Below, one piece after another: positions 5,486 to 21,389 of a DNA stretch of 64,000 nt. Source of the DNA: Candidatus Omnitrophota bacterium (GTDB lineage: Bacteria > Omnitrophota > Gorgyraeia > Zapsychrales > Zapsychraceae); NCBI GenBank assembly GCA_020429915.1, contig JAGQKV010000006.1:5458-69457 (forward strand), in the 5' to 3' direction. Position 1 is the stretch's first letter. Each line of letters opens with the position of its first letter. The notes beneath the pieces are model-generated. The model did not search any database, was not told where the DNA came from, and worked only from the letters and a program-made list of their open reading frames with translations. Made by a program: the position numbers and the translations under genes.

Positions 5486-7417
5486 ATGAAGAAAATTTCC
5501 GTCCTGGCCATCATGGTATTCGTGATCGGGGTCGCCTTGCGTGTCCAGCTGTTGCAGGCGCCCTATATCGAGGACGAACGTAAAAATATATATATCGCGC
5601 AACAGATTTCGTTCGAGCCGGGACACGCGTATCTTCCGCTCGAACACAAAGAAATCACGCATCCGCTGTTAAACGTGTATCTGACCAAACTGGGCATGAG
5701 CGTGTGGGGTGAAAGCGGACCCGGCCCGCGTGTGATCCATTTTCTGCTCGGATCACTGACTTTGGCGCTGGTATACCTGTTGGCACGCACGTGGGGCGAA
5801 ATGGCCGGGGTATGGGCGCTGGCCGCGCTGGCTTTTAATCCTTATCATTTGCATGCCACCGTGCGTGCCGAGAATGCCAGCTCGCTGCTGTTTTTTACGG
5901 CGCTGGCGCTGTGGCTTTTTTACCGCGCGATGGAGACCCGGCGCGGTAAGTGGATGATCGCGCTGGGACCTGTTATGGGGGCCGCCTTTTTGACCAAGGG
6001 CGTCAGTCTCCTGCTGGTGCCGGCCATGGGACTGCTGTTGATAGGTCACGCCGATCAGCGCTTCTGGTGGCGCTCCCGCAGTCTTTACATCGCGGTCGGG
6101 CTTTTCATACTGACGATCAGCCCATGGCTGATTTGGGTGAGTGTGCACGGGACGTATCAGCTGATGTTCGAGCCGGGTATGTATAAACCCGCGATGATCC
6201 GGTTGAATCCGACCGCCGTTCATTTTTACCTGATTGATTTGTTTTGCCGGTTGAACCACGTCGAACCGCGGATGGTCACCAGTTGGGAGTACGGTCGTAT
6301 GGATATCGTCTCGGGACTGGTGTTGTTGCTGGGCGTCGTGTGGGCGGCTCTGAACAAGCCGGACCGCCTGGCGCGTTGGCTGCTGGCCTGTTTTACCGTC
6401 ATCGTGGTCGTGTTGAGTTTTTTCCGCCGGGATGGCAACGCCGTCGGTGAGTTTTGGTGGGTCAATCTGAGCTTGATTCCGGCGGTTTGTCTGGCCGGCA
6501 GGATGCTGTCGTCCTGGAACAGCTGCGGCAGGATGTTTCGTCTGATGACCTTCGGTGTCTTTGTTTTCTTATGCGTCCACGCGGCCTGTTTTGTCCGTAC
6601 GTTGCCGGGCGATATCTTGTATCCCCCGCGGCGGTTTTGTCCGTTGGTCGATCAGGATTACACGGTGGGCCGTCTGGCCATGACGGACGGCCGCTATGAT
6701 TTGGCCCGCAGCGAGTTTAAACAACATCTCCGGTACGCACCGAACAATGTCGAGATTCTCAGTTTTCTGGGATTGCTGAATTTTCACCAGGGCCACTTTG
6801 ATGCGGCCGTCGACTATTGGGCGCGGGCGTTGGTTTTGGATCCGCATTATGTTCATGTCAGCAACAAGCTGATCAATCACAGTGCGGTGTTGCGCGCGCA
6901 TTTCTTGCGGCGATGGTATGAGAATACAACCGATCCGCAGACCGCTTACTATTTGGGCGTGGTGAATTTCTACGACGGGCAGTTCGATCAGGCCCGGGCC
7001 TTTTTCGACCGCTTGTCCCGACTTGAGCCGGGGTTGCCCGCGGCGGCTTATTACAAGGCCCGTATTCACTATGCCAAAAAAGAGTACGCTGTGGCCGAGA
7101 CAATGCTCCGGGAGGTCTTGCGGGGAAGGCCGGGTTTCACCGGCGCCCATTTTGCGCTGGGCCAAGCCTACTTGAAAGAAGGCCGTTACCGGGAAGCCGT
7201 GGCCGCCTTTGACGGGGAATTGCGGTCCAATCCGCAGGATTTAAAATCGATGTACTACCGGGCACAAGCGTTCGAGAAATCGGGTGCCGCGGGCGAGGCG
7301 TCCGTTGCCTACCGGGCCGCGCTGGATCTCGTTCACGCCGATCTGATTCAGCGTCTGCGCGAGACGGATCCGTCGCCATACATCAAAATACTGTCATTAA
7401 CAAGGGGAGCGTCTTGA
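5486..7417 (+). CDS. GT-C (PMT_2/ArnT-like) glycosyltransferase fused to a C-terminal TPR domain (TMTC-like architecture)
   Basis: Start taken at the ATG at 5486 (MKKISVLAIMVF..). 'YIEDERKNIYIAQQI' is a first-loop DE motif. The C-terminal ~230 aa carry TPR-like repeats (e.g. 'AYYLGVVNFYDGQFDQARAFFDRL..', 'AHFALGQAYLKEGRYREAVAAF'). Confidence 0.6.
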   Translation: MKKISVLAIMVFVIGVALRVQLLQAPYIEDERKNIYIAQQISFEPGHAYLPLEHKEITHPLLNVYLTKLGMSVWGESGPGPRVIHFLLGSLTLALVYLLARTWGEMAGVWALAALAFNPYHLHATVRAENASSLLFFTALALWLFYRAMETRRGKWMIALGPVMGAAFLTKGVSLLLVPAMGLLLIGHADQRFWWRSRSLYIAVGLFILTISPWLIWVSVHGTYQLMFEPGMYKPAMIRLNPTAVHFYLIDLFCRLNHVEPRMVTSWEYGRMDIVSGLVLLLGVVWAALNKPDRLARWLLACFTVIVVVLSFFRRDGNAVGEFWWVNLSLIPAVCLAGRMLSSWNSCGRMFRLMTFGVFVFLCVHAACFVRTLPGDILYPPRRFCPLVDQDYTVGRLAMTDGRYDLARSEFKQHLRYAPNNVEILSFLGLLNFHQGHFDAAVDYWARALVLDPHYVHVSNKLINHSAVLRAHFLRRWYENTTDPQTAYYLGVVNFYDGQFDQARAFFDRLSRLEPGLPAAAYYKARIHYAKKEYAVAETMLREVLRGRPGFTGAHFALGQAYLKEGRYREAVAAFDGELRSNPQDLKSMYYRAQAFEKSGAAGEASVAYRAALDLVHADLIQRLRETDPSPYIKILSLTRGAS

Positions 7418-8670
7418 AAGTTATCCCGCGCCGGTTGGTCGCGTTTGAAAAAGGGGAATTGGCCGCGAGCTGGCGGGTCCTGCGCGGCGAAGAGGAGGCC
7501 GGACTGGTTGCTGAATTTGAGCAGCGGTTCACCGAGTACGTGAGCGTCCCCTACGCGATGGCGGTCTCTTCGGTGCGTGACGGTTTTTCGTGCCTGCTGG
7601 ACGTGCTCGAATTCGCGCCCGGCGACGAAATCATCATGGCCGCCTACAACTATCATGTCATGCCGCTGATCGTTAAAAAGCGCGGACTGGTGCCGGTCTT
7701 CGCGGACATCGATCCGGACACGCTGAATATCGATCCCGGTCAAATCGAAAGATTGATCACCGACAAGACCCGGGCGGTTATTGTGACCCATCTGTTCGGA
7801 CGGTCGGCACGCGCGACGGAAATCCAAAAGATCTGCCGGGAACGCGGGCTGATATTGCTCGAGGACGCGGCCCACGCGTGCGGGGCCGAATGCGACGGCC
7901 GCAAGGTCGGCGGGTTCGGCGATTTCGGGATGTTCAGCTTCGGGACCGGTAAATGTCTGGTGACGCTCGGCGGGGGGGTCATCGTCTCCCGGAACACGGA
8001 AGTGTTTACCAGGCTCCGGGAGCGGTTGGACAATCAGGACCACCCGGGGGAACGCTGGCACAGCACCAGTTACTATCTTAAATGCCTGCTGCAAATTGCA
8101 CTCACCAACCGGACGCTGTTTGCGGTCCTGGTATATCCTTGGATTTTGTTGGCCGACCTGATACGGCTGGACATCATCGAACGGCTGACCGGAGATAAAT
8201 ATACGTCGGCGGATGTCAGCGCCAAGAGCCAGGTGCAGCCGTTCGCTGAATTCCAGGCCCTGCTCGGATTGCAGCAACTCAAGCGGCTGGACGCCATGAA
8301 CGACAAACGGATCGCGCGCGCCCAGCTGCTCGACCGCTATCTTGAGGATGTGAAAGAGATCAAACGGATCCCGGTTGTGGGGAACCGCGAGCACATCGCC
8401 CAGTCGTACACCGTTATTTGCGATGATAAGAACGCGCTGCGGCGGCATTTGCTGCGTAAAGGCATCGACACCAAAGAATCGTCTATGCGCAATTGCGCGC
8501 AGTTCCTGGGGGCGGACGGCCCGTTTCCCGGTATGGCCGGGATCGACGACCGTATTGTCGAATTGCCCTGTTCCCAACACCTGAGTGAAAACGAGATGTT
8601 ATACCAGGCCAATGCGGTCCGGGACTTTTTCGGCTATCCGATGACATCCGGTCCGGGCGGAGGCAGATGA
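7414..8670 (+). CDS. DegT/DnrJ/EryC1/StrS-family PLP-dependent sugar aminotransferase
   Basis: 'GDFGMFSFGTGKCL' is the PLP-lysine region. Overall fold-type I aminotransferase layout typical of nucleotide-sugar aminotransferases. The overlapping 410-aa antisense ORF (7348-8580) is rejected. Confidence 0.8.
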   Translation: MKVIPRRLVAFEKGELAASWRVLRGEEEAGLVAEFEQRFTEYVSVPYAMAVSSVRDGFSCLLDVLEFAPGDEIIMAAYNYHVMPLIVKKRGLVPVFADIDPDTLNIDPGQIERLITDKTRAVIVTHLFGRSARATEIQKICRERGLILLEDAAHACGAECDGRKVGGFGDFGMFSFGTGKCLVTLGGGVIVSRNTEVFTRLRERLDNQDHPGERWHSTSYYLKCLLQIALTNRTLFAVLVYPWILLADLIRLDIIERLTGDKYTSADVSAKSQVQPFAEFQALLGLQQLKRLDAMNDKRIARAQLLDRYLEDVKEIKRIPVVGNREHIAQSYTVICDDKNALRRHLLRKGIDTKESSMRNCAQFLGADGPFPGMAGIDDRIVELPCSQHLSENEMLYQANAVRDFFGYPMTSGPGGGR

Positions 8671-9446
8671 TGGCAGATTTCTGGAAAGACAAGGTCGTGA
8701 TCGTCACCGGCGCTTCTTCGGGAGTGGGCCGCAGCTGCGTCGAGGAGATGTCCGCGCGGAGGGCCAAGGTTGTGCTGGCGGCCCGCCGGCTGGAGCGGAT
8801 GCAGGAAATCGGAGAGACACTTCCGCGGGAGTCGACGCTGATCGTTCAAACGGATGTGGGAAAACAGGGCCAGGTCGAGGCGATGGTCCGCCGGACGGTG
8901 GAACATTTCGGACGGGTGGACGTCCTGGTCAACAACGCCGCCGTCGGTATGGGCGGGAATGTGATCACCTGTCCGCTCGATAAATACGAAGAACTCATGC
9001 AGATCAATGTCTTCGGCGCGTTGTACTGCATGCGGGCCGTGTATCCGCACATGAAGGCACAGGGCGGCGGGGCGATTGTCAATGTCAGTTCGATCGCCGG
9101 CTTCAAAGGCTTTTACACCTGCGGGCTTTATGCCAGCTCCAAGCACGCCCTCAACGGCATGAGCGAAAGCTTAGGAGAAACGGCACGCAAAGACAACATT
9201 CACGTGGCGTTGATCTGTCCGGGAAAGATCGAGACGGAATTTGACCAGAAGCTTTTGTATTTCGAAGGGAAGCGCTCGACTGAGAACAGCGGCATCGAGC
9301 CGGTCGAAGTCTGCCGGGCGATCATGCGCGCCGTCGAGAAAAAGAAGTGCCTGATCGTCCTCGGAAAAAAGTGCATGCCGCTGTATTTGTTGAACCGACT
9401 GTCGCCGGAGCTGACGAACTTTCTGATCCGCAAGCTCTACGCCTGA
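8667..9446 (+). CDS. Short-chain dehydrogenase/reductase (SDR)
   Basis: 'VTGASSGVG' Rossmann motif and the 'YASSKHAL' catalytic YxxxK. About 259 aa, classical SDR length. Confidence 0.85.
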   Translation: MMADFWKDKVVIVTGASSGVGRSCVEEMSARRAKVVLAARRLERMQEIGETLPRESTLIVQTDVGKQGQVEAMVRRTVEHFGRVDVLVNNAAVGMGGNVITCPLDKYEELMQINVFGALYCMRAVYPHMKAQGGGAIVNVSSIAGFKGFYTCGLYASSKHALNGMSESLGETARKDNIHVALICPGKIETEFDQKLLYFEGKRSTENSGIEPVEVCRAIMRAVEKKKCLIVLGKKCMPLYLLNRLSPELTNFLIRKLYA

Positions 9447-9477: not shown

Positions 9478-11226
9478 ATGAGAAGCAAAGACATCTCCAT
9501 CGCTTTTATTTGCAATGCCGTTTTATTGGGCCTGTTATGCGCCGATGCCCTCGGTCTCAATCTGTATCTCCGGGCTTTGTTCGTCAATTTGGCGATGTAT
9601 GTGGTCCCCGGAACGGGCTGGCTGGGCATCATGCGCCGGCATGTTTCGAGCGCGGTGTTCCTGTTGTTTTTTCAATTCGTCCTGTCCGTTGCCGCGTTGA
9701 TCGTCCTGCATTTGGGATTCCTCGCCGCGGGACACGTCCCGGACACGCACACGTTTTTAGTCGGTCTGCTGGTCCTGACAAATGCCGGTATTCTCGTCAG
9801 CCGGCCGGCAGCGGCGTTCGCCATGCTGCGTTTTGATTACTGGCGGATCGTGATTCTGGGCGTGACCCTGGTCTGCGTTTATACCTGCGTGTTTGCGGGC
9901 ATGCGCACTCTCCCCGGACAGTTGGACCTCGACGGCGAACATCAGGGAACGGCCTACGGGATCGTCCACGAGTTCCGGCCCTATCTGACCAGCGACATCA
10001 TCGCCTCGCCGTACTACTTCGCCCATCCGCCGTTAACCAATATTTTTAACGCCTACAGCACTTTGCTGTTGAACCGGACGGAAGATTACCGTTATTTTTA
10101 CGAAACCGCGAAACAGACCGAGCGCGTGCTCGGCTTGCGCCCCGGCGGACAGGAACCGGTGAGCCTTGGTCCGGAGCGGGGAAGTTTGATTTACTTCCAG
10201 GGCAGTACCTATGTCTTCCGGACGATGCGCGGCAATGACATGCTGGACCGGCCGATTTCCCGGCAAAGGGTGATGGAACATTTGGCGGCACCGGATCAAA
10301 AGAAGTTCTTCGACGATCCGCGGCCGTTTCCGGCGCGCGCTTCGAATATTTTTGCCAGCCTGTTCGTCCTGTGCGTGCTGTTTCAGTGGATCACCAAGCT
10401 GACGAATTCGCGGCTATTGGGTATCGTCGCCGGATTTGTCTATGTCTTCTCGCCGGGGATTTTCATCCGCTCCTGTTTCTCCGAGCACGTGGCCTTCACC
10501 AACGCCCTGTTGGTCGTATTGGCCTATCAGTTTTGTTTTCCCGAAGAATTCCGGGGAAAGGGACGTTGGGGCGGCCTGCTGGCCTATGTCCCGGGGCTGA
10601 TCGCCGGGCTGATCAATCAAAAAATAGTAATCATGGTCGCGCCGGTACTGGTGATGGAAGTCGTGACGTGTCTGCGGCAACGCGGGGCCGGGTCGTGGGC
10701 GGTCCGGCTTGTGAAGGCGGCGCCCATTCCCGCGGGTTTCGCGGCGGGCACGGTGCTGTTTTGGATCTACGGTCTGGCGATTGACCCGGCGGCGTTTTTT
10801 ATTTCGCATCTGCGGACACATTTTTTCGACCGTCTGCTGCATTTGAACACCATGTTCGGCGGGGATTATCCCGGCGCCGGTCTGCTCTGGTATCAGTTCA
10901 ATCACGAATTTCCGCCTTTTTTGCTGAGCGTCTTCGCTGTGTTGTATAGTTTAAAGAGCCAGCGCAACCGGACTGTCGTCTTTTTGACCGCCTGGGCCGT
11001 TTTCGGCGGAGTCCTGTTTTCCGTGGTCGACTGGAAACAAACCAATCATCTCACTCAGCTGACGATTCCGTTGTTGGCCGTGTTGATGATGTATATCGAA
11101 CAGCAGCCGCTCGCCTACAAACGGGTGTTAAAGGTTTTGGTGGGGTTGTGTCTGCTTTACGGTTTCTGGTTCGACATGCAGCTGCTGGCGGATTTTCATT
11201 TTTACAAACCGGTCAGCGGATGGTAA
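9478..11226 (+). CDS. Polytopic membrane protein, possibly a further GT-C-type glycosyltransferase
   Basis: More than 12 hydrophobic helices. A loop 'DGEHQGTAYGIVHEF' is reminiscent of GT-C first-loop motifs. No firm family assignment. Confidence 0.4.
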   Translation: MRSKDISIAFICNAVLLGLLCADALGLNLYLRALFVNLAMYVVPGTGWLGIMRRHVSSAVFLLFFQFVLSVAALIVLHLGFLAAGHVPDTHTFLVGLLVLTNAGILVSRPAAAFAMLRFDYWRIVILGVTLVCVYTCVFAGMRTLPGQLDLDGEHQGTAYGIVHEFRPYLTSDIIASPYYFAHPPLTNIFNAYSTLLLNRTEDYRYFYETAKQTERVLGLRPGGQEPVSLGPERGSLIYFQGSTYVFRTMRGNDMLDRPISRQRVMEHLAAPDQKKFFDDPRPFPARASNIFASLFVLCVLFQWITKLTNSRLLGIVAGFVYVFSPGIFIRSCFSEHVAFTNALLVVLAYQFCFPEEFRGKGRWGGLLAYVPGLIAGLINQKIVIMVAPVLVMEVVTCLRQRGAGSWAVRLVKAAPIPAGFAAGTVLFWIYGLAIDPAAFFISHLRTHFFDRLLHLNTMFGGDYPGAGLLWYQFNHEFPPFLLSVFAVLYSLKSQRNRTVVFLTAWAVFGGVLFSVVDWKQTNHLTQLTIPLLAVLMMYIEQQPLAYKRVLKVLVGLCLLYGFWFDMQLLADFHFYKPVSGW

Positions 11227-11241
11227 GAGAGAGGCGTCTGA

Positions 11242-13017
11242 ATGCAACGGGTCGTTGATTGGTTGAGGGACAATCGCACACTGTTGTGGCTGACATGCGC
11301 GCTGTGTCTGTTGCGGGCGGCGCCCTTATTCAGTGTGGAGGCGATTTGGCCGTCGCTCGAACGCTTCTATGCCGGAACCGTGGCCCGCGAGATGGCCGAC
11401 GGGCTGAAAATGCCACTCCTGGATTATCAATTCAGCAGCTATGAACCCGGATGGCTGCTGGCGGGTTTGCTTTGCCTGCCCTTTATGAAGCTCGTCGGTT
11501 TCACGTCGTTCGGCATGGCGTTGGCCGGGATATTATTGGACGCGATTCAATTTGTGATTTTTTATCGCATCCTGAACCGTTACATCAATCCACGCGTGGC
11601 ATTGTTTTACGGTTTGCAATATATCATCGCGCCCTACATTCTTCACGTCACCAACATCTTCGTCAACTTCAGTTATTTTGACCTGCCCTTTCTGACCGCC
11701 CTGTTTTTGGGAATGTATCTGAAGATTTTTCGTGACAACGGGGTTCACGCCGTTGTCGGGGGGACGGGCTTTTCGTTGTTTTGTCTGGGGCTGTTGGGTG
11801 GATTCTCGACGTGGCTTTGCCTGGCTTTTTTACTGATCGCCGTGCCGTGCCTGGTGCATTGGCGGGTTTATGTCCGCCGCGCGCGGCCGCGGGAAGTAGG
11901 CGCGTTTCTGGGCGGGTTCCTGATCGGCTTGAGCCCGTTGTTACTGCGCTGGTCCACCTTTGCCGGCGGAATCCAAAGCGGAATCCTTGAGCGGATCCTG
12001 GCGCAGGACGCCGGCGGGTTCATTTCAAGGTTGATTGGATTTCTTGCGGTGCGGCCGGCGTTTGCCTGGTCGGTGTTCTTTCAGTACATCGAGATCCTGG
12101 GTGTCCTGCTTTTTGTGATACTCATTATTCTGAGGAGAAAAGAGCTCGGCCGGGCCGTATCCGGATTATTCGGCGGCCGGGTCGGGGCTCCGGACGACAA
12201 CGGACTTCCGGTGATCTATATCGTCTATCTCCTGACGTTTATCACGGTATTCTGTTCGAGTGATTTTTCGAATGAACGGTATTTTCAGCCTGTGTATCCC
12301 TTTTTATTCGGCTGCAACGCCATGGCCGTTGACGGGCTGATGCGGATGCGGTCGCGCGTTTGGGGCCGGATCGGCACGGGGGTCCTGACTTTGCAATTGC
12401 TGCTGGCGGCGGCCGACTGCGCGACGGTCCCGCTGTATCGGACCGCGCCGAACCTGGCGCTCTTTCGCGACCGGGCCTATTCATACGCGTTGATCGGTTG
12501 CCTGTCCAGCTGGCGCTTCCGCCTGGACCCGCGGCGGGTGATGGCCATTTACGCGCGGTTGAAATCCGACGAAGACCGGCAGGCCTACATGCGGGGCTTC
12601 GGCTTCGAACTGGCAGTGGAAAGTGACGATACGCTTGCCGACGATTATTTCCAGTACCTGCGGGAGCATTTCCCCACAGACGACGGACGCCGCCGCGCTT
12701 TTCGCGTCGGACTCTTGCTGGGGCAGGGACAGCGGCAGTACGAAGGTACCGCGTTGTCCGAATTTTATCCGACGATACTGCAGTCCGTCACCCGGGAGGA
12801 GGTGCGACGATTCGTGAAGGAACAGGTTCGGCTGATCGGTTTTGAGGACGATGCCGACCGGCCGGCGTTATATGCGGGACTGGGTCAACAGTTTTTTGCG
12901 GTAGCCCCGGACATCGGGCTGCCCGCGGCGGAGGTAATTCCGTTTATTGAAGAGAAGTACCGGGGTGATTTCTTTCAAGGCCGGTTGCTGGCCGATCGTT
13001 ACCGGGATCAAATCTAG
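11242..13017 (+). CDS. ArnT/PMT-like membrane protein with a unique C-terminal soluble domain (paralog 1 of a tandem pair)
   Basis: 591 aa. 'WPSLERFYAGTVAREMADG' resembles the ArnT 'DEARYAEIAREM' loop. The N-terminal ~330 aa are membrane-embedded; the C-terminal ~250 aa are soluble. Clear paralog of the next gene. Confidence 0.5.
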   Translation: MQRVVDWLRDNRTLLWLTCALCLLRAAPLFSVEAIWPSLERFYAGTVAREMADGLKMPLLDYQFSSYEPGWLLAGLLCLPFMKLVGFTSFGMALAGILLDAIQFVIFYRILNRYINPRVALFYGLQYIIAPYILHVTNIFVNFSYFDLPFLTALFLGMYLKIFRDNGVHAVVGGTGFSLFCLGLLGGFSTWLCLAFLLIAVPCLVHWRVYVRRARPREVGAFLGGFLIGLSPLLLRWSTFAGGIQSGILERILAQDAGGFISRLIGFLAVRPAFAWSVFFQYIEILGVLLFVILIILRRKELGRAVSGLFGGRVGAPDDNGLPVIYIVYLLTFITVFCSSDFSNERYFQPVYPFLFGCNAMAVDGLMRMRSRVWGRIGTGVLTLQLLLAAADCATVPLYRTAPNLALFRDRAYSYALIGCLSSWRFRLDPRRVMAIYARLKSDEDRQAYMRGFGFELAVESDDTLADDYFQYLREHFPTDDGRRRAFRVGLLLGQGQRQYEGTALSEFYPTILQSVTREEVRRFVKEQVRLIGFEDDADRPALYAGLGQQFFAVAPDIGLPAAEVIPFIEEKYRGDFFQGRLLADRYRDQI

Positions 13018-13028
13018 GAGAGCGAAAG

Positions 13029-14804
13029 ATGGAAGGCATCGGCCGCTGGCTGAAGAATAACCGGAGTCTGGTGATCCTCACCGCCGCCCTTATCGCGGCG
13101 CGGGTGTCGTTGATTTTCTGCACCGAGCAGCTGTGGCCGTCGCTGGAACGGTTCTACACCGGGACCGTGGCCAAGGAGTTGGCCGACGGCATGGCCATGC
13201 CGCTGTGGGATTATCAGTTCAGCAGCTATGAGGCCGGGTGGCTGCTGGCGGCCCTGCTGTGCCTGCCGTTCTTTAAACTGTTCGGTTTTACGTCCTTTGC
13301 CATGGGCTTGTGCGGCATTATTCTCTACGTCATCCAGTTCGTTTTGCTCTACCGGCTGATCGAAAGGGGACTGAACCGCCGGGTCGCCGTTTTCTTCGGC
13401 CTGCAATACCTGTTCGCGCAGTATATCTTCAATCTCAACGCCCTGTTTGTCGGCTTTAACTACTTTAACATCGTTTTCCTGTACGCCCTGTTCCTCACTT
13501 TTTACCGGGCGGTCTTCCGCGACAATGCGATCCACGGTGTGGTCGGCGGGCCGTTGCTTTCGTTGTTTTTCTTAGGGCTGCTCGGCGGGTTTTCGACATG
13601 GGTGTGCTACGCCTTCGCGTTGATTGCGATCCCGTGCTTCATTCACTGGTGGATTTATTACCGTTCCCGGGATCTGCGGACGGTAGTGAGTTTTGTCGCC
13701 GGTTTCGTACTCGGCGGCAGCCCGTTGTTTTTTCGAATCGCCACGTTCGCCGGTGGGATCAAGACGGATATCCTGGCCAAGATCATCGCACAGGATTTGC
13801 CGGGCTTTATCGCGAAGTTTTGGCATTTTATCGGATTTGAACACAGTTACGCGCGTTCGGTGTTTTCCGATTACCTGGAGATCCTGGGAACGATTTTATT
13901 TGCGCTGATCATCTTTTTGAAGCGAAACGACCTGGGCCGTTTACTCGGTGCCGTTTTCGGATCGCGTGCCGTGGAAGAAGGCGAGAGCGGGACGTTTTTG
14001 CTGTTCTGTCTGTACCCCGCGGCCTTCCTGACCGTGTTCTGTCTGAGCGGTTTCGCGGACTACCGCTACTTTGCGCCGGTCTATCCGTTTGTCTTCGCTG
14101 TGAACGCCATTGCCGTCGATCTTCTGCTGAGTTACCGGAACCGATTTGTGAAGGGATTGGGGGCCGGATGTCTCGGGGTTTTATTGCTTTTTGGGGTGGC
14201 CGATAGTATAATTATACCGCTATATCCGGTTGCACCGAATCTTGCTTTATTCCGCGACGAGGCCTATTCCTACGAACTTTTGGGGTGTCTGGTCAGCTGG
14301 CGCTTTAAGGATGACCCCAGACGGGTTATGCGTGTGGTCAACCGGCTTTCCGACGATGAGAAACGCACGGATTTATTGCGCGGTTTCGGATTCGAGCTGG
14401 CCTTCGACGGGAACGAAGAACTCATCAAAGAGTACGATGTTTTTTTCGCCAACACCTACCGTCACCGGCCGGCGTTCCTGAAGGCTTATTCCAAGGGGTT
14501 TGTGATGGGGCTCGGCCACGAATATTTCGACGGCACGCCCCTCGGCGAATATTATCCGGAGGTCTTGCGGAATATCCCGCGCACCGGAGTCGAGCGGTAC
14601 TTGGTTAAGAAGCTGGACTTGATCGATATGCTCGATCCCCGGTACCGGCCGAAATGCTACATCGGTTTAGGTTTCCAGTTTTCCGCCCTTGAGGAGGAAT
14701 ACGGTCTGGACGCAGAATTTGTAACGCACCGGATCGGCACGGAGTATCACGACGACTTTATGCGTGGTGTCGCGCTTGGAAAAACATATACTTACCGGCT
14801 CTAA
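13029..14804 (+). CDS. ArnT/PMT-like membrane protein (paralog 2 of the tandem pair)
   Basis: 591 aa and collinear with the previous gene ('WPSLERFYTGTVAKELADG', 'DYQFSSYEAGWLLAALLCLPF', 'ALFRDEAYSYELLGCLVSWRF' conserved between the two copies). Confidence 0.5.
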   Translation: MEGIGRWLKNNRSLVILTAALIAARVSLIFCTEQLWPSLERFYTGTVAKELADGMAMPLWDYQFSSYEAGWLLAALLCLPFFKLFGFTSFAMGLCGIILYVIQFVLLYRLIERGLNRRVAVFFGLQYLFAQYIFNLNALFVGFNYFNIVFLYALFLTFYRAVFRDNAIHGVVGGPLLSLFFLGLLGGFSTWVCYAFALIAIPCFIHWWIYYRSRDLRTVVSFVAGFVLGGSPLFFRIATFAGGIKTDILAKIIAQDLPGFIAKFWHFIGFEHSYARSVFSDYLEILGTILFALIIFLKRNDLGRLLGAVFGSRAVEEGESGTFLLFCLYPAAFLTVFCLSGFADYRYFAPVYPFVFAVNAIAVDLLLSYRNRFVKGLGAGCLGVLLLFGVADSIIIPLYPVAPNLALFRDEAYSYELLGCLVSWRFKDDPRRVMRVVNRLSDDEKRTDLLRGFGFELAFDGNEELIKEYDVFFANTYRHRPAFLKAYSKGFVMGLGHEYFDGTPLGEYYPEVLRNIPRTGVERYLVKKLDLIDMLDPRYRPKCYIGLGFQFSALEEEYGLDAEFVTHRIGTEYHDDFMRGVALGKTYTYRL

Positions 14805-14818
14805 TTCAGGAGGCCTAC

Positions 14819-15985
14819 ATGTATCAATCCCAGGAAAAACCGACCCGCCTTAATTATTTCCAGAAAGTCGTCAGCCATCTTACTTATTTTGATTTCGTCT
14901 ACAAAAATCCCTGGGTTGTAGCCCGCCTTATCAAGAATTATTTCCGAATCATCGTCTTGCGGCAGCAGGTTATCCGCATTATCGATATCGGCGTTACCGC
15001 CGCATGCAACGCCAAGTGCGCGCATTGCTGCAGCGACGCCACCGTCGACACGCGCTGCACCACGCAAGGTGCGCCTGAGATGCGTGAACCGCTCGACATT
15101 GAAGAAATCGAAGATATCATCGCTCAAAGCGTGAAGATGGGTGCCGTGATTTTCAATTTCCTCGGTGGCGAACCACTGGTGTACAAAGACATTTACCGCG
15201 CCATCCGTTGCGTCAAGAAGCATCATGCCATCGCCGGGATGTCGACGAATGGATTTCTGCTTTCCGAAAAGGTCGTCGCTCAGTTGAAAGAAGCCGGGCT
15301 TGACTGCATTCAGGTGGACCTCGGCGGGGGACTCAATCCCAAGGAAATCGACGAGATCCGCGGACTCACCGGATGTCTTGACAGGGCGCTGAACGGGATC
15401 CGGCTGCTGAAGGAGGCCAACATCAAGGTCATTATGAGTACGATCATGACCAAGAAGAATGCCGCCAACGGGGACATCTGGAAGATGGTTCAGCTAGCCA
15501 AGGACCTGAACATCAAGATCAACGTCAATTGCTCCTCACGCACCGGCGGGTGGGCCGGCAATGAGGACAGCGAGCTGTCCGAAAAGGAATTTGCGATCTA
15601 CAAGGAAATCATCAAGATGCCGCACACGCGGTGGGCCGGCAGCACGAATTATTTTGCCGAGTTCTGTCCCTGCGGGACCGAAAAGATCATGATCACCACT
15701 TACGGTGAGATTCAGCCCTGCGGGTTGATCCCGCTTTCTTACGGGAATTTCCGCAGCGAGGCGATCAATGATATCTGGACCCGCATGCAGACCCAGAAGA
15801 TCATTTGTGACGGCAAGAAGGAAAAGGCCTGCCGCTCCGCCTGGGATAAGGACATCATCCGGCTGAACACATCCATGTATGAAACGGATAAGCCCAAACC
15901 GTTGCGGGTCGACGACATTCCCCAGGAGCGGTTGAAGGCCACGGAAAAGCCGGCGGATTCGACGGTCAATTCTTCCCAATCGTAG
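14819..15985 (+). CDS. Radical SAM enzyme with C-terminal SPASM/twitch domain
   Basis: 'CNAKCAHC' CX3CX2C radical SAM cluster motif. A second C-terminal Cys cluster 'CPCGTEK..PCG' is typical of SPASM/twitch auxiliary domains. An AGGAGG RBS lies 7 nt upstream. Confidence 0.75.
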   Translation: MYQSQEKPTRLNYFQKVVSHLTYFDFVYKNPWVVARLIKNYFRIIVLRQQVIRIIDIGVTAACNAKCAHCCSDATVDTRCTTQGAPEMREPLDIEEIEDIIAQSVKMGAVIFNFLGGEPLVYKDIYRAIRCVKKHHAIAGMSTNGFLLSEKVVAQLKEAGLDCIQVDLGGGLNPKEIDEIRGLTGCLDRALNGIRLLKEANIKVIMSTIMTKKNAANGDIWKMVQLAKDLNIKINVNCSSRTGGWAGNEDSELSEKEFAIYKEIIKMPHTRWAGSTNYFAEFCPCGTEKIMITTYGEIQPCGLIPLSYGNFRSEAINDIWTRMQTQKIICDGKKEKACRSAWDKDIIRLNTSMYETDKPKPLRVDDIPQERLKATEKPADSTVNSSQS

Positions 15986-16007
15986 TCACGATCCGGAGAC
16001 AAAAGTC

Positions 16008-16052
16008 AATTGCGGCAAGGGTTTGCGATAATCTCGCGCTTGCCGCCCGGGT
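16008..16052 (+). terminator. Stem-loop immediately downstream of the first rSAM gene (possible terminator or attenuator)
   Basis: GCGGCAAG(16008-16015)...CTTGCCGC(16045-16052): an 8-bp perfect inverted repeat with a 29-nt spacer/loop that contains a smaller hairpin. There is no strong T tract. Confidence 0.3.
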
Positions 16053-16105
16053 TTAAGTATTCTATCCTTGTAGCATAGATTTCCGCTCCGGCCGCCGTCC
16101 GATAT

Positions 16106-16136
16106 TTGTAGACAAAGAGGTTAATGGGGATATAAT
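16106..16136 (+). promoter_or_regulatory. Candidate sigma70-like promoter for the second SPASM rSAM gene
   Basis: TTGTAG(16106-16111)-N19-TATAAT(16131-16136) inside a 231-bp AT-rich intergenic region. Confidence 0.3.
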
Positions 16137-16216
16137 ATTACTACTATAAATCAGTAGAAACACGGATACCGGATGCGTGGACAGACGCCCGAACGACCCG
16201 CCTCAAAGGCCATAAG

Positions 16217-17272
16217 ATGATAAATATAAACAACTTATGGAAACACAGAAAATTGCTGCGTAACAATTTTCAGATTGTTCCCAGAGTTGTCCAGGATTAC
16301 TACCGGCTGCTGGTCCTGAAACAGCCGGTCCTGCGCAAAGTGGACATTGCCGTGATTGCCGGGTGCAACGCGAAATGTCCTTTTTGTTTTGCCGCGACCC
16401 TGGAAAATGAGGAGGGCCCGCAACTCAGCCTTCCCGAGATTCAGGGGATCGTCACCGAAGCGGTTAAGCTCGGGGCCATCGCGGTGGAGTTTATCGGCGG
16501 TGAACCGTTGATGTGCCGCCACCTCGCCGACGCGGTCCGCTTTGCCCGCCGCCAGAATGTCCTCACCAGCACCACCACCAACGGCCTGCTGCTTACACAC
16601 AAAAAGATCCATGAGCTCAACGACGCCGGCCTGAATGTCATCCAGATCAGTCTCGACAGCGCCGATCACCGCGAACACGATGCCAGCCGGGGTGTACCCG
16701 GCTGTTACGCCAAGATCATGCAGGCCATTGAATGGATTCGCGAAACCGATATCGAGCTGATGCTCAGCACGGTGGCCACCAATGAAAACCTCAGTAACGA
16801 CGGTGTCATGAAGGTTGTGAAGTTTGCCGAGCATCTCGACGTCCCGATCACCGTCAACCCGGCCTCCAAGGCCGGGGGCTGGAAAGGGAATGCCAACGTC
16901 CTGCTGACCGATGAGAACCGCCGCCGTTTCGAACAGATCGTGCAAACGTCCCACGCGCGCTGGGCCGGCCAGGTGAATTTCCTTAAAGAGGGGTGTCCGT
17001 GCGGTAAAGAGGTTATTTATGTCACGGCTTACGGACATGTGATCCCCTGCGGTTTTATCCAGATTTCTTACGGAAATATCCGGCAGGAACCCCTGACCCA
17101 AATCTGGGACCGGATGCAGGAGCACCGGCTCATGCAGGAAGATAAAAACACCTGTATCGCCGCCTTTGACAAGGCATTCATTAAGGATTACATCGATCCG
17201 CTCGATCGCCGGGAAGATTTGCCGGTTTACATCCACGACCATCCCACATACAAGCAGAAGGTGAACGGATAA
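16217..17272 (+). CDS. Radical SAM enzyme with SPASM/twitch domain (paralog of 14819-15985)
   Basis: 'CNAKCPFC' CX3CX2C motif and C-terminal 'CPCGKE..PCG'. Collinear similarity with the preceding rSAM (e.g. 'VLRKVDIAVIAGCNAKC' vs 'VIRIIDIGVTAACNAKC'; 'HARWAGQVNF' vs 'HTRWAGSTNY'). Confidence 0.75.
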   Translation: MININNLWKHRKLLRNNFQIVPRVVQDYYRLLVLKQPVLRKVDIAVIAGCNAKCPFCFAATLENEEGPQLSLPEIQGIVTEAVKLGAIAVEFIGGEPLMCRHLADAVRFARRQNVLTSTTTNGLLLTHKKIHELNDAGLNVIQISLDSADHREHDASRGVPGCYAKIMQAIEWIRETDIELMLSTVATNENLSNDGVMKVVKFAEHLDVPITVNPASKAGGWKGNANVLLTDENRRRFEQIVQTSHARWAGQVNFLKEGCPCGKEVIYVTAYGHVIPCGFIQISYGNIRQEPLTQIWDRMQEHRLMQEDKNTCIAAFDKAFIKDYIDPLDRREDLPVYIHDHPTYKQKVNG

Positions 17273-17274
17273 CT

Positions 17275-18699
17275 ATGAAAGTACTGCTCGTCAATCCCTG
17301 GTCGCTTAAGAAATTCAATGTGATTGTGATTCCCAACATCAGTCTGGGTTATCTCGCGGCGTCGCTGATGAAGGCGGGGCACGAGGTGGAAATTCTGGAT
17401 TGTGTCCGGGACCGTATCGATCCCGATCAATTTGAAAGCCGGATTCGTGAGAATCCCGACTATGACCTGATCGGATTTTCGTTGTTTACGACCTACGTAG
17501 GAGCGGTCAAGAAATATACCGAGGCGATCAAACGGATCAATCCGCGCATCGCAACCGCGGTGGGCGGTCCGCACGCCGTGCTCGAACCGGTGGAAACTTT
17601 GGAGATCCTCACGGACGTCGACTTCGGATTCCGTGGCGAGGCGGAAATCGGGATATGCCAACTCGTCGAAGTCCTCGGCATGGAGGCCGACCCGTATGGT
17701 CACGACCGGTTGCGCGAGGTGGATAATCTGGTGTGGCGCGACAAGGGCGGTGAAATCGTTTGCAATCCCCGCGTGATGATCGACGATCTGGACAGCCTGC
17801 CGTACCCGCCGTGGGATATTATGAATCCGGGCAAGTATCCGCTGGCCCCGATCGGAGTCTTTTCCAAACGGCGCAAAGTTGCGCCGATCATCGCCACGCG
17901 CGGCTGCCCGTACCCGTGCACTTTTTGCGCGGCCGGAAAGATGTCCGGCAAAAAGATGCGCACCCGTTCGGTGGAAAACATTCTGGATGAAATCAAACTG
18001 CTGGTGGACAAGTTTGGCGTCGAGGAAATCAATATCCTGGATGATAACTTTACGTTGCAACACAAGCTGGTCGAGGATTTTTGCCACGGATTGATCGACA
18101 ACAATATCGATATTACCTGGTCCTGTCCCAACGGGGTCCGGCTCGACACGCTCGACGCGGAGTTATTGAAGTTGATGGAGCGGGCCGGCTGCTATTCCTT
18201 CGGTGTCGGCATCGAGTGGGGCACGTCCAAGATGCTCAAGATCACGCGCAAGTGCGTGACGCTGGCCACCATCCGTGAAAAGGTGGACCTGATCAAGGCC
18301 AACACCAATATCCGGGTGACCGGCTTCTTCATGCTCGGGCATCCGGAAGAAACGATCGAAGACGTGGAGGCTACCATTGACTTTGCCTGCAGTCTGAATA
18401 TCGACCGGGCCAATTTTTTCAACTTTTCGCCGTTTCCGGGGATTGTCGAATACGACAAACTGAAACGGGAAGGGAAGGTCATCAAGAACTGGTATGACTC
18501 GCTTTATATCAACAGCGTCGTGTACACGCCGCGGCAGATGACCCGCCAGCAATTGGTCAATCTGCAGCGCAAGGCCTTTTGGCGGTTCTACACGCGCCCG
18601 CGGATATTCTTTAATATTCTGAAGGAGATTAAATCGTTCAGCCAGTTTATGGTGGTCTTCAAAAAATCGATGCGGTTAGTCTTCGTTCACGGTCAGTAG
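17275..18699 (+). CDS. B12-binding-domain radical SAM enzyme (class B rSAM)
   Basis: N-terminal Rossmann-like cobalamin-binding region ('VLLVNPW...GYLAASL..GHEVEILD'). 'TRGCPYPCTFC' CX3CX2C motif. Confidence 0.75.
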   Translation: MKVLLVNPWSLKKFNVIVIPNISLGYLAASLMKAGHEVEILDCVRDRIDPDQFESRIRENPDYDLIGFSLFTTYVGAVKKYTEAIKRINPRIATAVGGPHAVLEPVETLEILTDVDFGFRGEAEIGICQLVEVLGMEADPYGHDRLREVDNLVWRDKGGEIVCNPRVMIDDLDSLPYPPWDIMNPGKYPLAPIGVFSKRRKVAPIIATRGCPYPCTFCAAGKMSGKKMRTRSVENILDEIKLLVDKFGVEEINILDDNFTLQHKLVEDFCHGLIDNNIDITWSCPNGVRLDTLDAELLKLMERAGCYSFGVGIEWGTSKMLKITRKCVTLATIREKVDLIKANTNIRVTGFFMLGHPEETIEDVEATIDFACSLNIDRANFFNFSPFPGIVEYDKLKREGKVIKNWYDSLYINSVVYTPRQMTRQQLVNLQRKAFWRFYTRPRIFFNILKEIKSFSQFMVVFKKSMRLVFVHGQ

Positions 18700-18703
18700 T
18701 GAG

Positions 18704-20116
18704 GTGCGTACGGTGTCTACGGCGAAAGTATCGTTAATTCGACTCGACCTGGGAAACAGCAAAAATATCAAGCATCCCTACCATTGTTCTCCGCCTTTTT
18801 CTTTAAAATATCTGGAAGCGATCCTGCGGGAGAGCGGCTTTGAGGACGTACGACTCTACGATGCCATGCCGGGCCGTCACCGCAATGAAGATGTGCTTGC
18901 CGAACAATTGACCCGTCGGCCGGACTTTGTCATTTATACGGTGAACGTCACCACCCTCAAGGAATTCCGCGCCTTCAATGCCCGTCTCAAACAGGAGCGC
19001 CCGGTGCTGACGGTGGCTATGGGGTCGATCGATCCGCGGTTCGTTCCGCCGGAGCTGGATATCTATCTGCCCGGAGAGGCCGAGGTGGAGGCCGCACAGC
19101 TTTTGCAGCGCATCGTTGACGGGGAAAGCGACGCCGAGACGGAAATCACCCGTTACGCCAAATACAAACAGGGACCGCAGCCGAATTTTCTCGTCCACAA
19201 TCTGGATGACCTGCCGTTTCCGGTTTACACCCGTGATGAAATCAAGGACTACCGGTTCATTTATCCGGTGCGGATGTCGCGCAAATTGCGCTGGGGTCAT
19301 ATCCTGTCGTCGCGCGGATGCCCGTATAAATGCACCTTTTGCTCGCCGGTGACGCGGGAAAGTTACGGCGCGAAGGCCCGGTTACGCTCGGCCGCCAATG
19401 TAGTCGATGAGATCGAGCGTCTGAAAGAGCAGGGTGTGAACATGATCAGCTTTGACGACGACCTGTTGACCATTACCCGCCGGCATATCACGGAGTTGTG
19501 TGATGAGATGATCCGCCGCGACGTGCAGATGAACTGGCTGGCGCATTCGCGCATCGACAATATCGATTACGAATTGCTGCGCAAAATGAAGGCGGCTGGT
19601 TGCGTGCTGCTGCGTTTCGGCGTCGAGTCCGGATCCGCCCGGATTGTGGCGTCTTTGACCAAATCGTTCAAGAAGATCGACTGGAACGACCAGGCCAAGA
19701 GAATATTCCGTTATGCCAGGGAGCTCGATATCGCTACCCATGCGCTGTTGATTATCGGCAGCCCGACCGAAACCGAGGCTGAGATCCAGGAAACATTTCA
19801 ACTGGTAAAGGAAATCAACCCCGACATCATGCAGATCCACTTCTTCAGTCCGTATCCGGGTTCCGTCAGCTATGAGCAGCTCAAGACCGAGTTGAGCGAA
19901 GATCAGGTGATGAACATGTTTCATTACGAACTTCCGCGGCAGACCATGGGTTCCCTGAATTCGGAGCGTTTAGGGCAAATCCGGTCGGACCTGTACCGGC
20001 GCATCTTTCTTAATCCGCGCTTCTTTTTCAGTCACATGCGCAAGTATTTCAGTTTTTATATGACAAACCTCGATGTCTTCTACCGGCTGTCCAAGGGTCT
20101 GATTTACATTAGATAA
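18704..20116 (+). CDS. B12-binding-domain radical SAM enzyme (paralog of 17275-18699)
   Basis: GTG start. 'SRGCPYKCTFC' motif. Collinear with the preceding gene ('LDDLPFPV', 'AAGCVLLRFGVESGS'). Confidence 0.7.
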   Translation: MRTVSTAKVSLIRLDLGNSKNIKHPYHCSPPFSLKYLEAILRESGFEDVRLYDAMPGRHRNEDVLAEQLTRRPDFVIYTVNVTTLKEFRAFNARLKQERPVLTVAMGSIDPRFVPPELDIYLPGEAEVEAAQLLQRIVDGESDAETEITRYAKYKQGPQPNFLVHNLDDLPFPVYTRDEIKDYRFIYPVRMSRKLRWGHILSSRGCPYKCTFCSPVTRESYGAKARLRSAANVVDEIERLKEQGVNMISFDDDLLTITRRHITELCDEMIRRDVQMNWLAHSRIDNIDYELLRKMKAAGCVLLRFGVESGSARIVASLTKSFKKIDWNDQAKRIFRYARELDIATHALLIIGSPTETEAEIQETFQLVKEINPDIMQIHFFSPYPGSVSYEQLKTELSEDQVMNMFHYELPRQTMGSLNSERLGQIRSDLYRRIFLNPRFFFSHMRKYFSFYMTNLDVFYRLSKGLIYIR

Positions 20117-20120
20117 TTCC

Positions 20121-21389
20121 ATGACCAAGAAGTTACCCCGCGACAAGCGCGGCCCGCTCGTCGGGATTATATTCTTTCTCGTTCTTTTGTTTCTGATCGA
20201 AGCGGCGTCCTATTTGTGTCCGGCCAAACCCGACCGGCTGGAACGGATCCGCGCCGTATTGCGCCAGGACAGCCAGTTGTTCTGGCGCCAGCGCGCGCAT
20301 TTGAATACCGTCTTTGAGGGCGCGGCCGTACGGACCAACCGGTTGGGACTTCGCGACGAGCCGGTGAGCAAGGGCGGAAAGAAGCCGGTACTGCGCATCG
20401 TGACCCTCGGTGCCTCGCCGACATTCGGGTGGGGGGTAGAGCAAAACGATACCTACGCCCAGGTGCTTGAACGGATCCTGCGCGACACCTTAAATACCGA
20501 GCAGGTGGAGGTGATCAACGCCGGACAGATCGGTTTCAGTTCCTATCAGGGGCTGAAGTTTTTCCGGGAGGTGATCCTGCCGTTGAAGCCGAATATGATC
20601 ACCGTCTCGTATGTGATCAACGACGTGGACAAGTACCGGTTTTTCCGCAACCACTCGGCCCCTGACAGCCAGCTGAAGCCGCAGAGCGGATTGCTGGTGG
20701 CCGTGGAGAACGCGCTGGAACACAGCCGGTTTTTTCGTTTATATCGCAAGTTGGTCAACGGGACCAAATCGGCGTCGCAACAATTTTTCGGGGAGCGCGG
20801 CACCGGCGAATACCGGGAGTCACGGCGGGTGTCCCCGGAGGAATATCGCGCGAATATCACGGCACTGATCGATTTGGCACAACAGCACGGTATCGACGTG
20901 GTCCTGGTCAAGATGCCGGTCAATCTGCCGCAGCCGGTGAAGGTCCCGGAAAGCAATGTGATCCGGGCGAAGCAGACCGTGACCGAGGCGATGGTGTGGG
21001 CCGAGCGTGGTTACCGGGAGGAAGCCATCCGTTTACTGCAACAGGCGCTGGCGTACAATCCCAACACGCCCCGGGCGCACTATTATCTCGGGCAGCTCTA
21101 CCAGCGCACGGGCAAACGCAAGCAGGCCCGCAAACATTTTGAACGCACCGTTGTCCTGGAACTGTACGAATGCGCGCGGCTGGCCCTGGAGTACCACCGT
21201 GTGCTGGACGACATTGCCGCGCAGCGTGATGTTCGTCTGGTCGACGTGGTCACGGCCTTTGACGAATACCGCCGCTACGGCGGAGACTACCTGTTTCTGG
21301 ATCCGGAGCATGACACCATTCATCCCAACCGCACGGGTCACGCCGTGATCGGCTGGGCCATTTACGACGAAATCTTCGCGCGGCCGTGA
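20121..21389 (+). CDS. Membrane-anchored SGNH/GDSL-family hydrolase with an inserted TPR module
   Basis: N-terminal TM helix. Block I 'VTLGASPTFG', block III 'VINAGQIG', block V 'DTIHPNRTGH' (DxxHP). TPR-like 'AIRLLQQALAYNPNTPRAHYYLGQLYQRTGKRKQARKHFERT' sits between blocks III and V. Confidence 0.65.
   Translation: MTKKLPRDKRGPLVGIIFFLVLLFLIEAASYLCPAKPDRLERIRAVLRQDSQLFWRQRAHLNTVFEGAAVRTNRLGLRDEPVSKGGKKPVLRIVTLGASPTFGWGVEQNDTYAQVLERILRDTLNTEQVEVINAGQIGFSSYQGLKFFREVILPLKPNMITVSYVINDVDKYRFFRNHSAPDSQLKPQSGLLVAVENALEHSRFFRLYRKLVNGTKSASQQFFGERGTGEYRESRRVSPEEYRANITALIDLAQQHGIDVVLVKMPVNLPQPVKVPESNVIRAKQTVTEAMVWAERGYREEAIRLLQQALAYNPNTPRAHYYLGQLYQRTGKRKQARKHFERTVVLELYECARLALEYHRVLDDIAAQRDVRLVDVVTAFDEYRRYGGDYLFLDPEHDTIHPNRTGHAVIGWAIYDEIFARP

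Follow-up and report, generated by a model that had tools for sequence, protein, structure and literature searches.

The window analyzed here is a stretch of 64,000 nucleotides from contig JAGQKV010000006.1 of a Candidatus Omnitrophota bacterium, in which two adjacent genes, A and B, encode membrane proteins of 591 amino acids (aa) each (Table 1). The original prediction, which was made from the DNA letters without database searches, described them as tandemly duplicated ArnT-like proteins with a unique C-terminal soluble domain. Here, we found that both proteins combine a membrane domain of the GT-C glycosyltransferase fold with a degenerate helical-repeat tail, and that they belong to a conserved cassette of glycan-related genes.

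Two adjacent paralogous genes

The open reading frames (ORFs) of A and B are each preceded by a purine-rich, Shine-Dalgarno-like stretch that resembles a ribosome-binding site. The spacers that separate the two genes from each other and from the flanking genes measure 15, 11, and 14 nt, and no terminator-like site was found in these spacers. Because the gaps are short and lack such a site, A and B look co-transcribed with their neighbors. Pairwise alignment of the two proteins by BLASTP yielded 289 identical residues out of 587 (49%; 66% positives, 0 gaps, 546 bits, E = 0.0), and this degree of similarity is far beyond chance. Thus, the predicted tandem duplication with divergence, which had been deduced from equal gene lengths and collinear conserved blocks, was borne out by the alignment. 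The strings quoted in the original prediction correspond to ERFYAGTVAREMADG and ALFRDRAYSYALIGCLSSWRF in A and to ERFYTGTVAKELADG and ALFRDEAYSYELLGCLVSWRF in B. When the identity was calculated by region, the first periplasmic loop (EL1) reached the highest value of all regions (76%), and for the C-terminal domain 42% was obtained.

Table 1. Coordinates of the gene pair, its domains, and the surrounding genes within the window
Feature	Position	Strand	Basis or remark
YfhO-like GT-C	268-2187	+	Pfam; synteny in L001, L002
PMT_2 protein	2206-3723	+	Pfam; synteny in L001, L002
539-aa membrane protein without family assignment	3720-5339	+	between PMT_2 and PMT_2-TPR genes; L001, L002
PMT_2+TPR protein	5372-7417	+	Pfam; synteny in L001, L002
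DegT/DnrJ/EryC1-type sugar aminotransferase	7414-8670	+	Pfam; partial NCBIfam matches to DesI, PseC, ArnB-type; synteny
SDR oxidoreductase	8667-9446	+	Pfam; synteny
582-aa polytopic membrane protein without family assignment	9478-11226	+	co-conserved with A/B family
Gene A, 591-aa GT-C-like membrane protein, faster-evolving paralog	11242..13017	+	ORF, ATG start
Gene A, first periplasmic loop EL1, aa 30-88	11329..11505	+	most A-B-conserved region, E40 invariant
Gene A, linker and C-terminal all-alpha repeat domain, aa 396-591, predicted periplasmic	12427..13014	+	family alignment, positive-inside topology
Gene B, 591-aa GT-C-like membrane protein, slower-evolving paralog, closer to single-copy outgroups	13029..14804	+	ORF, ATG start
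Gene B, first periplasmic loop EL1, aa 30-88	13116..13292	+	counterpart of A loop
Gene B, linker and C-terminal all-alpha repeat domain, aa 396-591, predicted periplasmic	14214..14801	+	AlphaFold2, repeat HMM
SPASM-type radical SAM gene	14819-15985	+	Pfam, NCBIfam
SPASM-type radical SAM gene	16217-17272	+	Pfam, NCBIfam
B12-binding radical SAM gene	17275-18699	+	Pfam, NCBIfam
B12-binding radical SAM gene	18704-20116	+	Pfam, NCBIfam
GDSL-TPR protein, first of three paralogs	20121-21389	+	
GDSL-TPR protein, second paralog	22294-23757	+	
GDSL-TPR protein, third paralog	23812-25269	+	
Further B12 radical SAM gene	25136-26758	+	
SufS-like cysteine desulfurase	28173-29390	+	427 bits vs 475-bit subfamily cut-off
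Further B12 radical SAM gene	29394-30692	+	
GT2-GDSL-TPR fusion	30689-32722	+	Pfam Glycos_transf_2 5e-30
GT9 heptosyltransferase-like protein	32727-33920	+	

Fold and topology of the N-terminal domain

The N-terminal part of A and B (about 395 aa) constitutes a membrane domain that resembles ArnT/PMT_2-like GT-Cs. PMT_2 (PF13231) was the sole meaningful Pfam match of the pair, with 24.0 bits (E 4.9e-5) for B and 11.4 bits for A at a gathering score of 26.1. The same family was matched by 32 of the 53 aligned homologs (best E 7e-11), one of the 53 matched the ALG9-like GT22 family, and precomputed PF13231 assignments were found for P0001, which is 99% identical to B, and for P0008. For structural comparison, an AlphaFold2 model of B was calculated from an alignment of 10 sequences (mean predicted local distance difference test score, pLDDT, 74; predicted template modeling score, pTM, 0.69). 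When this model was compared with the PDB by Foldseek, GT-C enzymes exclusively occupied ranks 1-12 (human ALG9, ArnT 5f15/5ezm, yeast and human STT3, archaeal AglB, ALG3), with probabilities of 0.99-1.0 and E-values of only 0.007-0.1. AftB appeared at rank 15. In hhalign, the family profile aligned with the neighboring PMT_2-TPR protein (E 6e-4) and with E. coli ArnT (E 3e-3, probability 11%), and the latter alignment was collinear from the EL1 motif to transmembrane (TM) helix 6. Each of these signals is weak but they are concordant, and on the basis of this agreement we assigned a GT-C fold (Pfam clan CL0111) of the ArnT/PMT_2 type to the N-terminal domain. The fold on which the original prediction depended thus appears to be present, and the label ArnT-like is justified in a broad sense, yet the two proteins are not members of the ArnT family.

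Helix boundaries were taken from the AlphaFold2 model. TM1 extends from residue 12 to 29, the loop 30-88 contains two helices (43-54 and 66-85), and some 10 further TM helices follow, the last of which stops near residue 395. Here, helix 66-85 was treated as juxtamembrane, which gives 11 TM helices. The predicted cytoplasmic loops carry 16.7 Lys and Arg residues per ~64 aa and the predicted periplasmic loops 9.3 per ~127 aa (means of 22 homologs), and these positive-inside counts fit a model of 11 TM helices and two juxtamembrane helices. When helix 66-85 was counted as a TM helix instead, three short Arg-rich loops ended up outside. The first periplasmic loop of ArnT also carries two juxtamembrane helices, JM1 and JM2 (PMC7801869). 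Three regions are predicted to be periplasmic in our model: EL1, the C-terminal domain, and the loop that carries R346 and Y347. EL1, which in A contains WPSLERFY..GTVA.E..DG and DYQFSSYE.G together with the predicted helices JM1 and JM2 and has an equivalent in B, is the probable catalytic loop.

Putative active-site residues

The first-loop signature of ArnT is DExRYA...M...G.W...YFEKP....W. When we tested the pair for this signature, A and B were found to read SLERFY.GTVA.E.ADG....PL.DYQFSSYE.GW, and the E. coli enzyme (L008) reads PDETRYAEISREM...YFEKP. According to the original prediction, this loop is a degenerate ArnT loop in which the first Asp has been replaced by Ser or Leu. However, the register of that comparison is probably off, since hhalign pairs E40 of the family with the first Asp of the ArnT PDETRY motif, although this alignment is of low confidence. 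If so, the lost acid is the second one (E to R41) and not the first. In GT-Cs, it is the first acid that is retained universally, as a catalytic or acceptor-binding residue (D55 in ArnT, D77 in Pmt1; PMC7801869). All members of the narrow family have E40, and so do 71% of 49 wider homologs. In the same 49 sequences, we observed high conservation of E41 (76%), G143 (88%), H145 (82%), E147 (80%), R346 (80%), and Y347 (73%). The clade of the pair has kept E40, R346, and Y347 and carries Arg at position 41, Phe at 143, and Tyr at 145. Position 147 is Asp in the A clade and Asn in the B clade as well as in P0003 and P0007.

It can be seen that the superfamily motif G-x-H-x-E of loop EL2 has become F-x-Y-x-N in B and F-x-Y-x-D in A, and judged from the alignment these departures are more striking than those in EL1. 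In ArnT, an EL2 Asp (D158) contacts the sugar (PMC7801869). The single-copy relatives P0010, P0012, and P0025 carry Gln at position 147, and thus a carboxylate is dispensable here in this lineage. The superfamily-invariant glycines are all retained in A and B. R346 and Y347 are invariant in the family and lie in the predicted TM9-TM10 loop (EL5), where R346 corresponds by position to the Arg of motif M7, which binds the donor phosphate in TMTC and ArnT (PMC7801869). E40 is the probable catalytic carboxylate, and R346 and Y347 probably bind the donor phosphate. As far as the sequences tell, both copies have kept the minimal catalytic equipment in an atypical site.

The C-terminal repeat domain

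The soluble C-terminal part of the proteins comprises about 190 aa (residues ~400-591) and is shorter than the ~250 aa originally proposed, which is explained by the end of the last hydrophobic helix. This domain is not unique to the pair as had been assumed. Many homologs have a C-terminal region that can be aligned with it, and in P0009-P0015, P0019, P0025, P0042, P0091, and P0115, among others, the alignment extends to the C-terminus. In the distant members P0018, P0028, and P0061, the region is an obvious tandem repeat with a period of ~34 aa. A hidden Markov model (HMM) constructed from 20 repeat units had the consensus NRVDEKYRPYFYRGIGEGIGRRFGDNIKEYILLIQK and a spacing of 33-35 residues. 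In B, degenerate ~34-aa copies are located near residues 443, 480, 507, 541, and 573. Vestiges of the repeat in the pair include RGFGFE, KGFVMGLG, EYYPEVL, RPKCYIGLGFQF, and DDFMRGVALG, and the repeat HMM scores weakly there. No match to the Pfam TPR model or to any other repeat model was obtained for A, B, or the tails of 53 relatives. The string ALFRD.AYSY.L.GCL.SWRF forms the first helix past the last TM helix and matches a superfamily-wide GYSYE.LG...WRF motif (Y415 in 90%).

When the C-terminal domain of B was modeled alone, AlphaFold2 predicted an all-helical structure of about 10 helices with a pLDDT of 90 and a pTM of 0.86. Foldseek searches with this model gave no significant PDB match, and the weak matches were all alpha-solenoids (TOG, HEAT, ARM, importin, designed helical repeats). 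A word-indexed search with the C-terminal profile returned zero matches, its own family included, and we judged this outcome an index artifact and not evidence. Taken together, the tail is best described as a degenerate helical repeat (alpha-solenoid) of TPR-like period, and a wider GT-C family of about 770 representative clusters, which is unannotated, has it in common with the pair. It probably functions as an acceptor-binding module, in analogy to the tails of TPR-tailed GT-Cs and to the CBM of GT136 (PMC11127046).

Relatives and duplication history

A word-indexed search of 5.8 billion clusters retrieved only 8 close relatives, all of them unnamed or annotated as hypothetical protein and one assigned to Candidatus Omnitrophota. 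In an exhaustive profile search of 1.84 billion representatives, 768 homologs passed a cut-off of E <= 1e-3 and 17 passed one of E <= 1e-30. Among the GTDB species representatives and the JGI metagenome contigs, no relatives were detected with two narrow-family peptide patterns, which would miss distant ones. As to the distribution of the tandem pair, which had been suggested as a check, we found it again in four other assemblies (L001, L002, L004, L005). Both copies are complete in L001, and the second copy is cut at 44 aa in L002, at 384 aa in L004, and at 425 aa in L005.

In a neighbor-joining tree, A and B fall into separate clades (52-61% identity within the A clade, 69-84% within the B clade), which share 40-50% identity with each other. 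The A ortholog clade consists of A from the window, A from L001, P0008, and P0005, and a broader A-containing clade includes the second copy of L005 and the first copy of L002 as sister to these four orthologs. This placement indicates that the tree is only approximate. B is 84% and A 61% identical to the respective L001 ortholog. In the same comparison, we calculated a nonsynonymous divergence (dN) of 0.087 and a ratio to synonymous divergence (dN/dS) of 0.10 for B, and values of 0.294 and 0.19 for A. These data indicate that both copies are under purifying selection and that A evolves about threefold faster. The identity to outgroups is 29-31% for B and 27% for A. In the cassettes that encode the 29%-identical homologs P0010 and P0011, a single gene takes the place of the pair, and therefore the duplication is specific to a sublineage, yet older than its radiation.

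Two side observations concern the A copies. The dS between the window and L001 is 1.57 for A and 0.85 for B, although orthologs of one genome pair should share this value. The A copies may have a different history (recombination, replacement), or the dS estimate may be saturated. Moreover, the A copy of L001 (8215-10032) is extended by 14 aa at its C-terminus, and this extension runs into the start of L001 B (10001-11776). As for the genome itself, the identity of the LeuRS encoded in the window to the enzymes of four Candidatus Omnitrophota metagenome-assembled genomes amounts to 79, 77, 70, and 70%, and to all other matches it is <=54%.

The surrounding gene cassette

The cassette is conserved even in distant loci, namely those of the single-copy proteins P0010 and P0011. 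The 582-aa membrane protein is encoded upstream of the A/B family at every locus that was inspected (L001, L002, L003, L004, L006, and L007), adjoining it in all of them but L006, and it is 37% identical to its distant L007 counterpart. It gave no Pfam, NCBIfam, or PDB match, and PDB sequence searches with the 539-aa protein were likewise empty. A conserved segment of the 582-aa protein, DLDGEH.GT.YG...FAHPPL, is reminiscent of PMT-type GT-Cs with their acidic loop and their HPPL motif. We consider the protein a probable functional partner of the pair, and it may alternatively be another unrecognized GT-C. That it is a third paralog of A and B was rejected, since hhalign gave a probability of 0.3%. 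For the 539-aa protein, a 544-aa counterpart was observed in L004.

Downstream of B, the first four radical SAM genes form a block (14819..20116) that has the same order in L001, L006, and L007, and the first of them is 49% identical to its L007 counterpart. The glycan cluster contains six radical SAM genes, two of the SPASM and four of the B12-binding type, none of which reaches the NCBIfam equivalog cut-off. Together with the DegT and SDR genes, they suggest radical tailoring (C-methylation, dehydration, epimerization) of a sugar or lipid, and the SufS-type desulfurase may supply sulfur for their iron-sulfur clusters. The GDSL-TPR proteins and the GT2-GDSL-TPR fusion could act as O-acyl transferases or esterases on the glycan. 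The GDSL-lipase/acylhydrolase+TPR and GT2-GDSL-TPR families are also present in L006. The best NCBIfam similarities of the GT2 domain in the fusion protein are to PgfS, ArnC, and PpgS, which are polyprenyl-phosphate sugar synthases, and all of them are well under the cut-offs. This domain is the best candidate of the window for a polyprenyl-phosphate-sugar synthase that supplies the GT-C donors. Our literature search for Omnitrophota with glycosyltransferase and radical SAM retrieved nothing on such a cassette. The gene logic is that of Arn-type and three-component periplasmic glycosylation (PMC11127046) and suggests that a tailored amino sugar decorates a glycan of the envelope.

Two small adjoining ORFs on the + strand (34173-34508 and 34501-34851; 111 and 116 aa), which separate the glycan cluster from a GH94-like phosphorylase gene (35083-37809), contain RRxxxR-like and D.S..G-like motifs that were recognized by eye and recall PilZ c-di-GMP-binding domains. 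The window also contains antisense ORFs of up to 786 aa, all of which lie opposite well-supported + strand genes. One of them (13014-13535, minus strand) is located inside gene B; two others (23110-25470 and 55532-57766, minus strand) lie opposite GDSL-TPR and LeuRS genes. These three were scanned against Pfam and gave no match. A fourth (16235-17242, minus strand) lies opposite a radical SAM gene. We rejected the long antisense ORFs as genes because of this overlap and because the three that were scanned had no family match. Most likely, they are shadow ORFs of this G+C and codon regime.

Discussion

We favor, with moderate confidence, the interpretation that A and B are two non-redundant periplasmic GT-C transferases that depend on a polyprenyl-phosphate-linked sugar and dock their acceptor with the repeat tail. 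According to this scheme, the two would be co-transcribed, anciently duplicated inner-membrane enzymes with about 11 TM helices each. By analogy with the superfamily, each would take a polyprenyl-phosphate-linked sugar on the periplasmic face and pass it to an envelope acceptor, such as lipopolysaccharide or another surface glycan or glycoconjugate, held by the periplasmic tail. On the cytoplasmic side, the DegT, SDR, and radical SAM enzymes of the cassette, together with its GT2 domain, would make and tailor the donor sugar. Most likely, A and B would add sugars at two different positions or steps. The two related specificities suggested by the original prediction are plausible, and a heterodimer is equally compatible with the data.

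Several observations weigh against such a transferase function. Neither protein reaches the PMT_2 gathering score, no NCBIfam match was obtained for A or B even at E <= 1, and HMM searches of PDB sequences with a narrow (A1) and a wide (A2) profile gave nothing significant. The structural model of B was calculated from only 10 sequences and has loops of low confidence; the Foldseek E-values are weak, and full-length TM-scores are 0.35-0.45. In the clade of the pair, E41 is replaced by Arg, G143 by Phe, H145 by Tyr, and E147 by Asn (B) or Asp (A). The first EL1 acid is Asp in all characterized GT-Cs compared (PMC7801869) and Glu in A and B. The active site is thus atypical, which could mean that the function of one copy or of both is impaired. 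Finally, neither a flippase nor a dedicated polyprenyl-phosphate glycosyltransferase was identified with confidence in the window, and the gap at 33.9-35.1 kb holds only the two small PilZ-like ORFs.

An obligate heterodimeric GT-C complex, comparable to EmbA-EmbB or Pmt1-Pmt2, in which one subunit is catalytic or priming and the other extends or mainly binds substrate, is a serious but rather unlikely alternative. The paralogs adjoin each other, have the same length without indels, and are retained together in every related genome that shows both positions. They evolve at unequal rates, with A fast and B slow, and GT-C paralogs are known to form heterodimers (6p25, Pmt1-Pmt2; 7bvf, EmbA-EmbB; PMC7801869). 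The usual Glu at EL2 position 147, which is Asp in the A clade and Asn in the B clade, would also fit a division of roles, but this split is not clean, since P0003, which occupies the A position in L002, has Asn like B. Moreover, distant homologs are single-copy in the same cassette, which indicates that heteromer formation is not intrinsic to the family.

A more far-reaching proposal, which we regard as unlikely in its entirety, holds that the pair and its single-copy relatives form a new GT-C family, in which a remodeled active site, an undescribed periplasmic 34-residue repeat, a pathway for an amino sugar tailored by SPASM and B12 radical SAM enzymes, and, in this lineage, an obligate A-B heterodimer come together. 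Here, Glu would stand for the universal EL1 Asp, the second acid would be lost, and the EL2 His and Glu would be lost in the pair; such a remodeled site may make the enzyme metal-independent. The conserved pathway would attach the amino sugar to the cell envelope, in Omnitrophota as well as in other uncultured bacteria.

Loss of the superfamily polar residues (E41 to R, H145 to Y, E147 to N), the sub-threshold PMT_2 scores, and the presence of several better-conserved GT-Cs in the same operon would also be expected if one or both proteins were non-catalytic GT-C derivatives. Such a derivative could be a scaffold, a binder of acceptor or carrier lipid, or a polymerase or ligase accessory, and it would serve the neighboring canonical PMT_2 enzymes and the 582-aa protein. 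We consider this improbable, since A and B both retain E40, R346, Y347, and the superfamily-invariant glycines, no region is more conserved than EL1, and purifying selection is strong. In addition, Gln147 of the single-copy P0010, P0012, and P0025 suggests that a carboxylate is not essential at this position. That A and B are true ArnT orthologs adding 4-amino-4-deoxy-L-arabinose to lipid A is extremely improbable and was rejected, for although the EL1 motifs are loosely alike, the alignment is collinear, and the cluster includes an ArnB-like DegT aminotransferase and a GT2 with weak ArnC similarity, the pair does not match the NCBIfam ArnT models, lacks the DExRYA...YFEKP signature, has 11 and not 13 TM helices and an all-alpha tail, and is accompanied by six radical SAM genes and not by ArnA, ArnD, ArnE, or ArnF equivalents, none of which was found.

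Omnitrophota are uncultured and often ultra-small bacteria, and to our knowledge, their envelope chemistry is essentially unexplored. The pair is a rare subfamily within a familiar enzyme class and not a new kind of system; it has been missed by current curated models, and its unmodeled repeat domain could become a Pfam or CAZy entry. As a natural case of asymmetrically diverging duplicates, A and B may also inform on how GT-C specificity or heteromerization evolves. The practical gain lies in better annotation and a defined target for glycobiology, and no new biological principle is involved. The pair alone is less intriguing than the entire cassette, in which the combination of several periplasm-facing GT-Cs with an aminotransferase, a reductase, and six radical SAM enzymes implies an unusual, heavily tailored surface sugar.

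Comparison with known systems

The pair resembles ArnT (GT83; 5ezm/5f15) in its predicted GT-C fold, N-in topology, and periplasmic C-terminal domain, in collinear TM2-TM6, and in a DegT-type aminotransferase in the operon. The first periplasmic loop, as predicted for the pair, has two juxtamembrane helices in both and an acid followed by aromatic-x-x-I/V-A/S-K/R-E. However, the sequence similarity is marginal (E 3e-3, probability 11%), and the signature with its YFEKP is absent in the pair, in which E40 replaces the Asp and Arg the second acid. ArnT consists of 13 TM helices and a periplasmic domain (PMC7801869), whereas the pair has about 11 and its C-terminal domain is an all-alpha repeat. 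The gene context also differs from an arn operon, with many radical SAM genes in the cluster, and no ArnA, ArnD, ArnE, or ArnF was found.

The PMT_2-TPR proteins, represented by the neighboring gene product and by the eukaryotic TMTC1-4, resemble A and B in having a GT-C domain of about 11 TM helices followed by extracytoplasmic 34-residue helical repeats. The PMT_2 region covers TM2-TM6 in both, and a phosphate-binding Arg lies in the TM9-TM10 loop (PMC7801869). In contrast to these proteins, the tail of the pair has no Pfam TPR match, and its repeat has a distinctive consensus (..YRPYFYRGIGEGIG..) from which little is left in A and B, where it is highly degenerate. Further differences are the E-R in place of the EL1 DD/DE, the EL2 motif, and a PMT_2 score below the gathering threshold.

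Like EmbA-EmbB, which lie side by side in mycobacteria, and yeast Pmt1-Pmt2, A and B are diverged paralogous GT-Cs with a periplasmic or luminal accessory domain, and as with EmbA-EmbB, the adjacent genes have been kept together over long evolutionary time. These enzymes belong to other GT families (GT53, GT39) and carry different C-terminal domains, and the sequence relation is at the superfamily level only.

The three-component systems (Gtr-type; GT136 of Citrobacter youngae) follow a route in which a polyprenyl-phosphate sugar is made by a cytoplasmic synthase, flipped, and added by a GT-C with a C-terminal acceptor-binding module to an extracytoplasmic glycan (PMC11127046), and the proposed function of A and B resembles this route. 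Unlike in these systems, no flippase or stand-alone synthase was recognized in the window and there are many GT-Cs instead of one, and unlike the CBM of the GT136 system, the C-terminal module of the pair is a helical repeat. A last difference lies in the donor sugar, which in this cassette has probably been heavily tailored by DegT, SDR, and the SPASM-type and B12-binding radical SAM enzymes.

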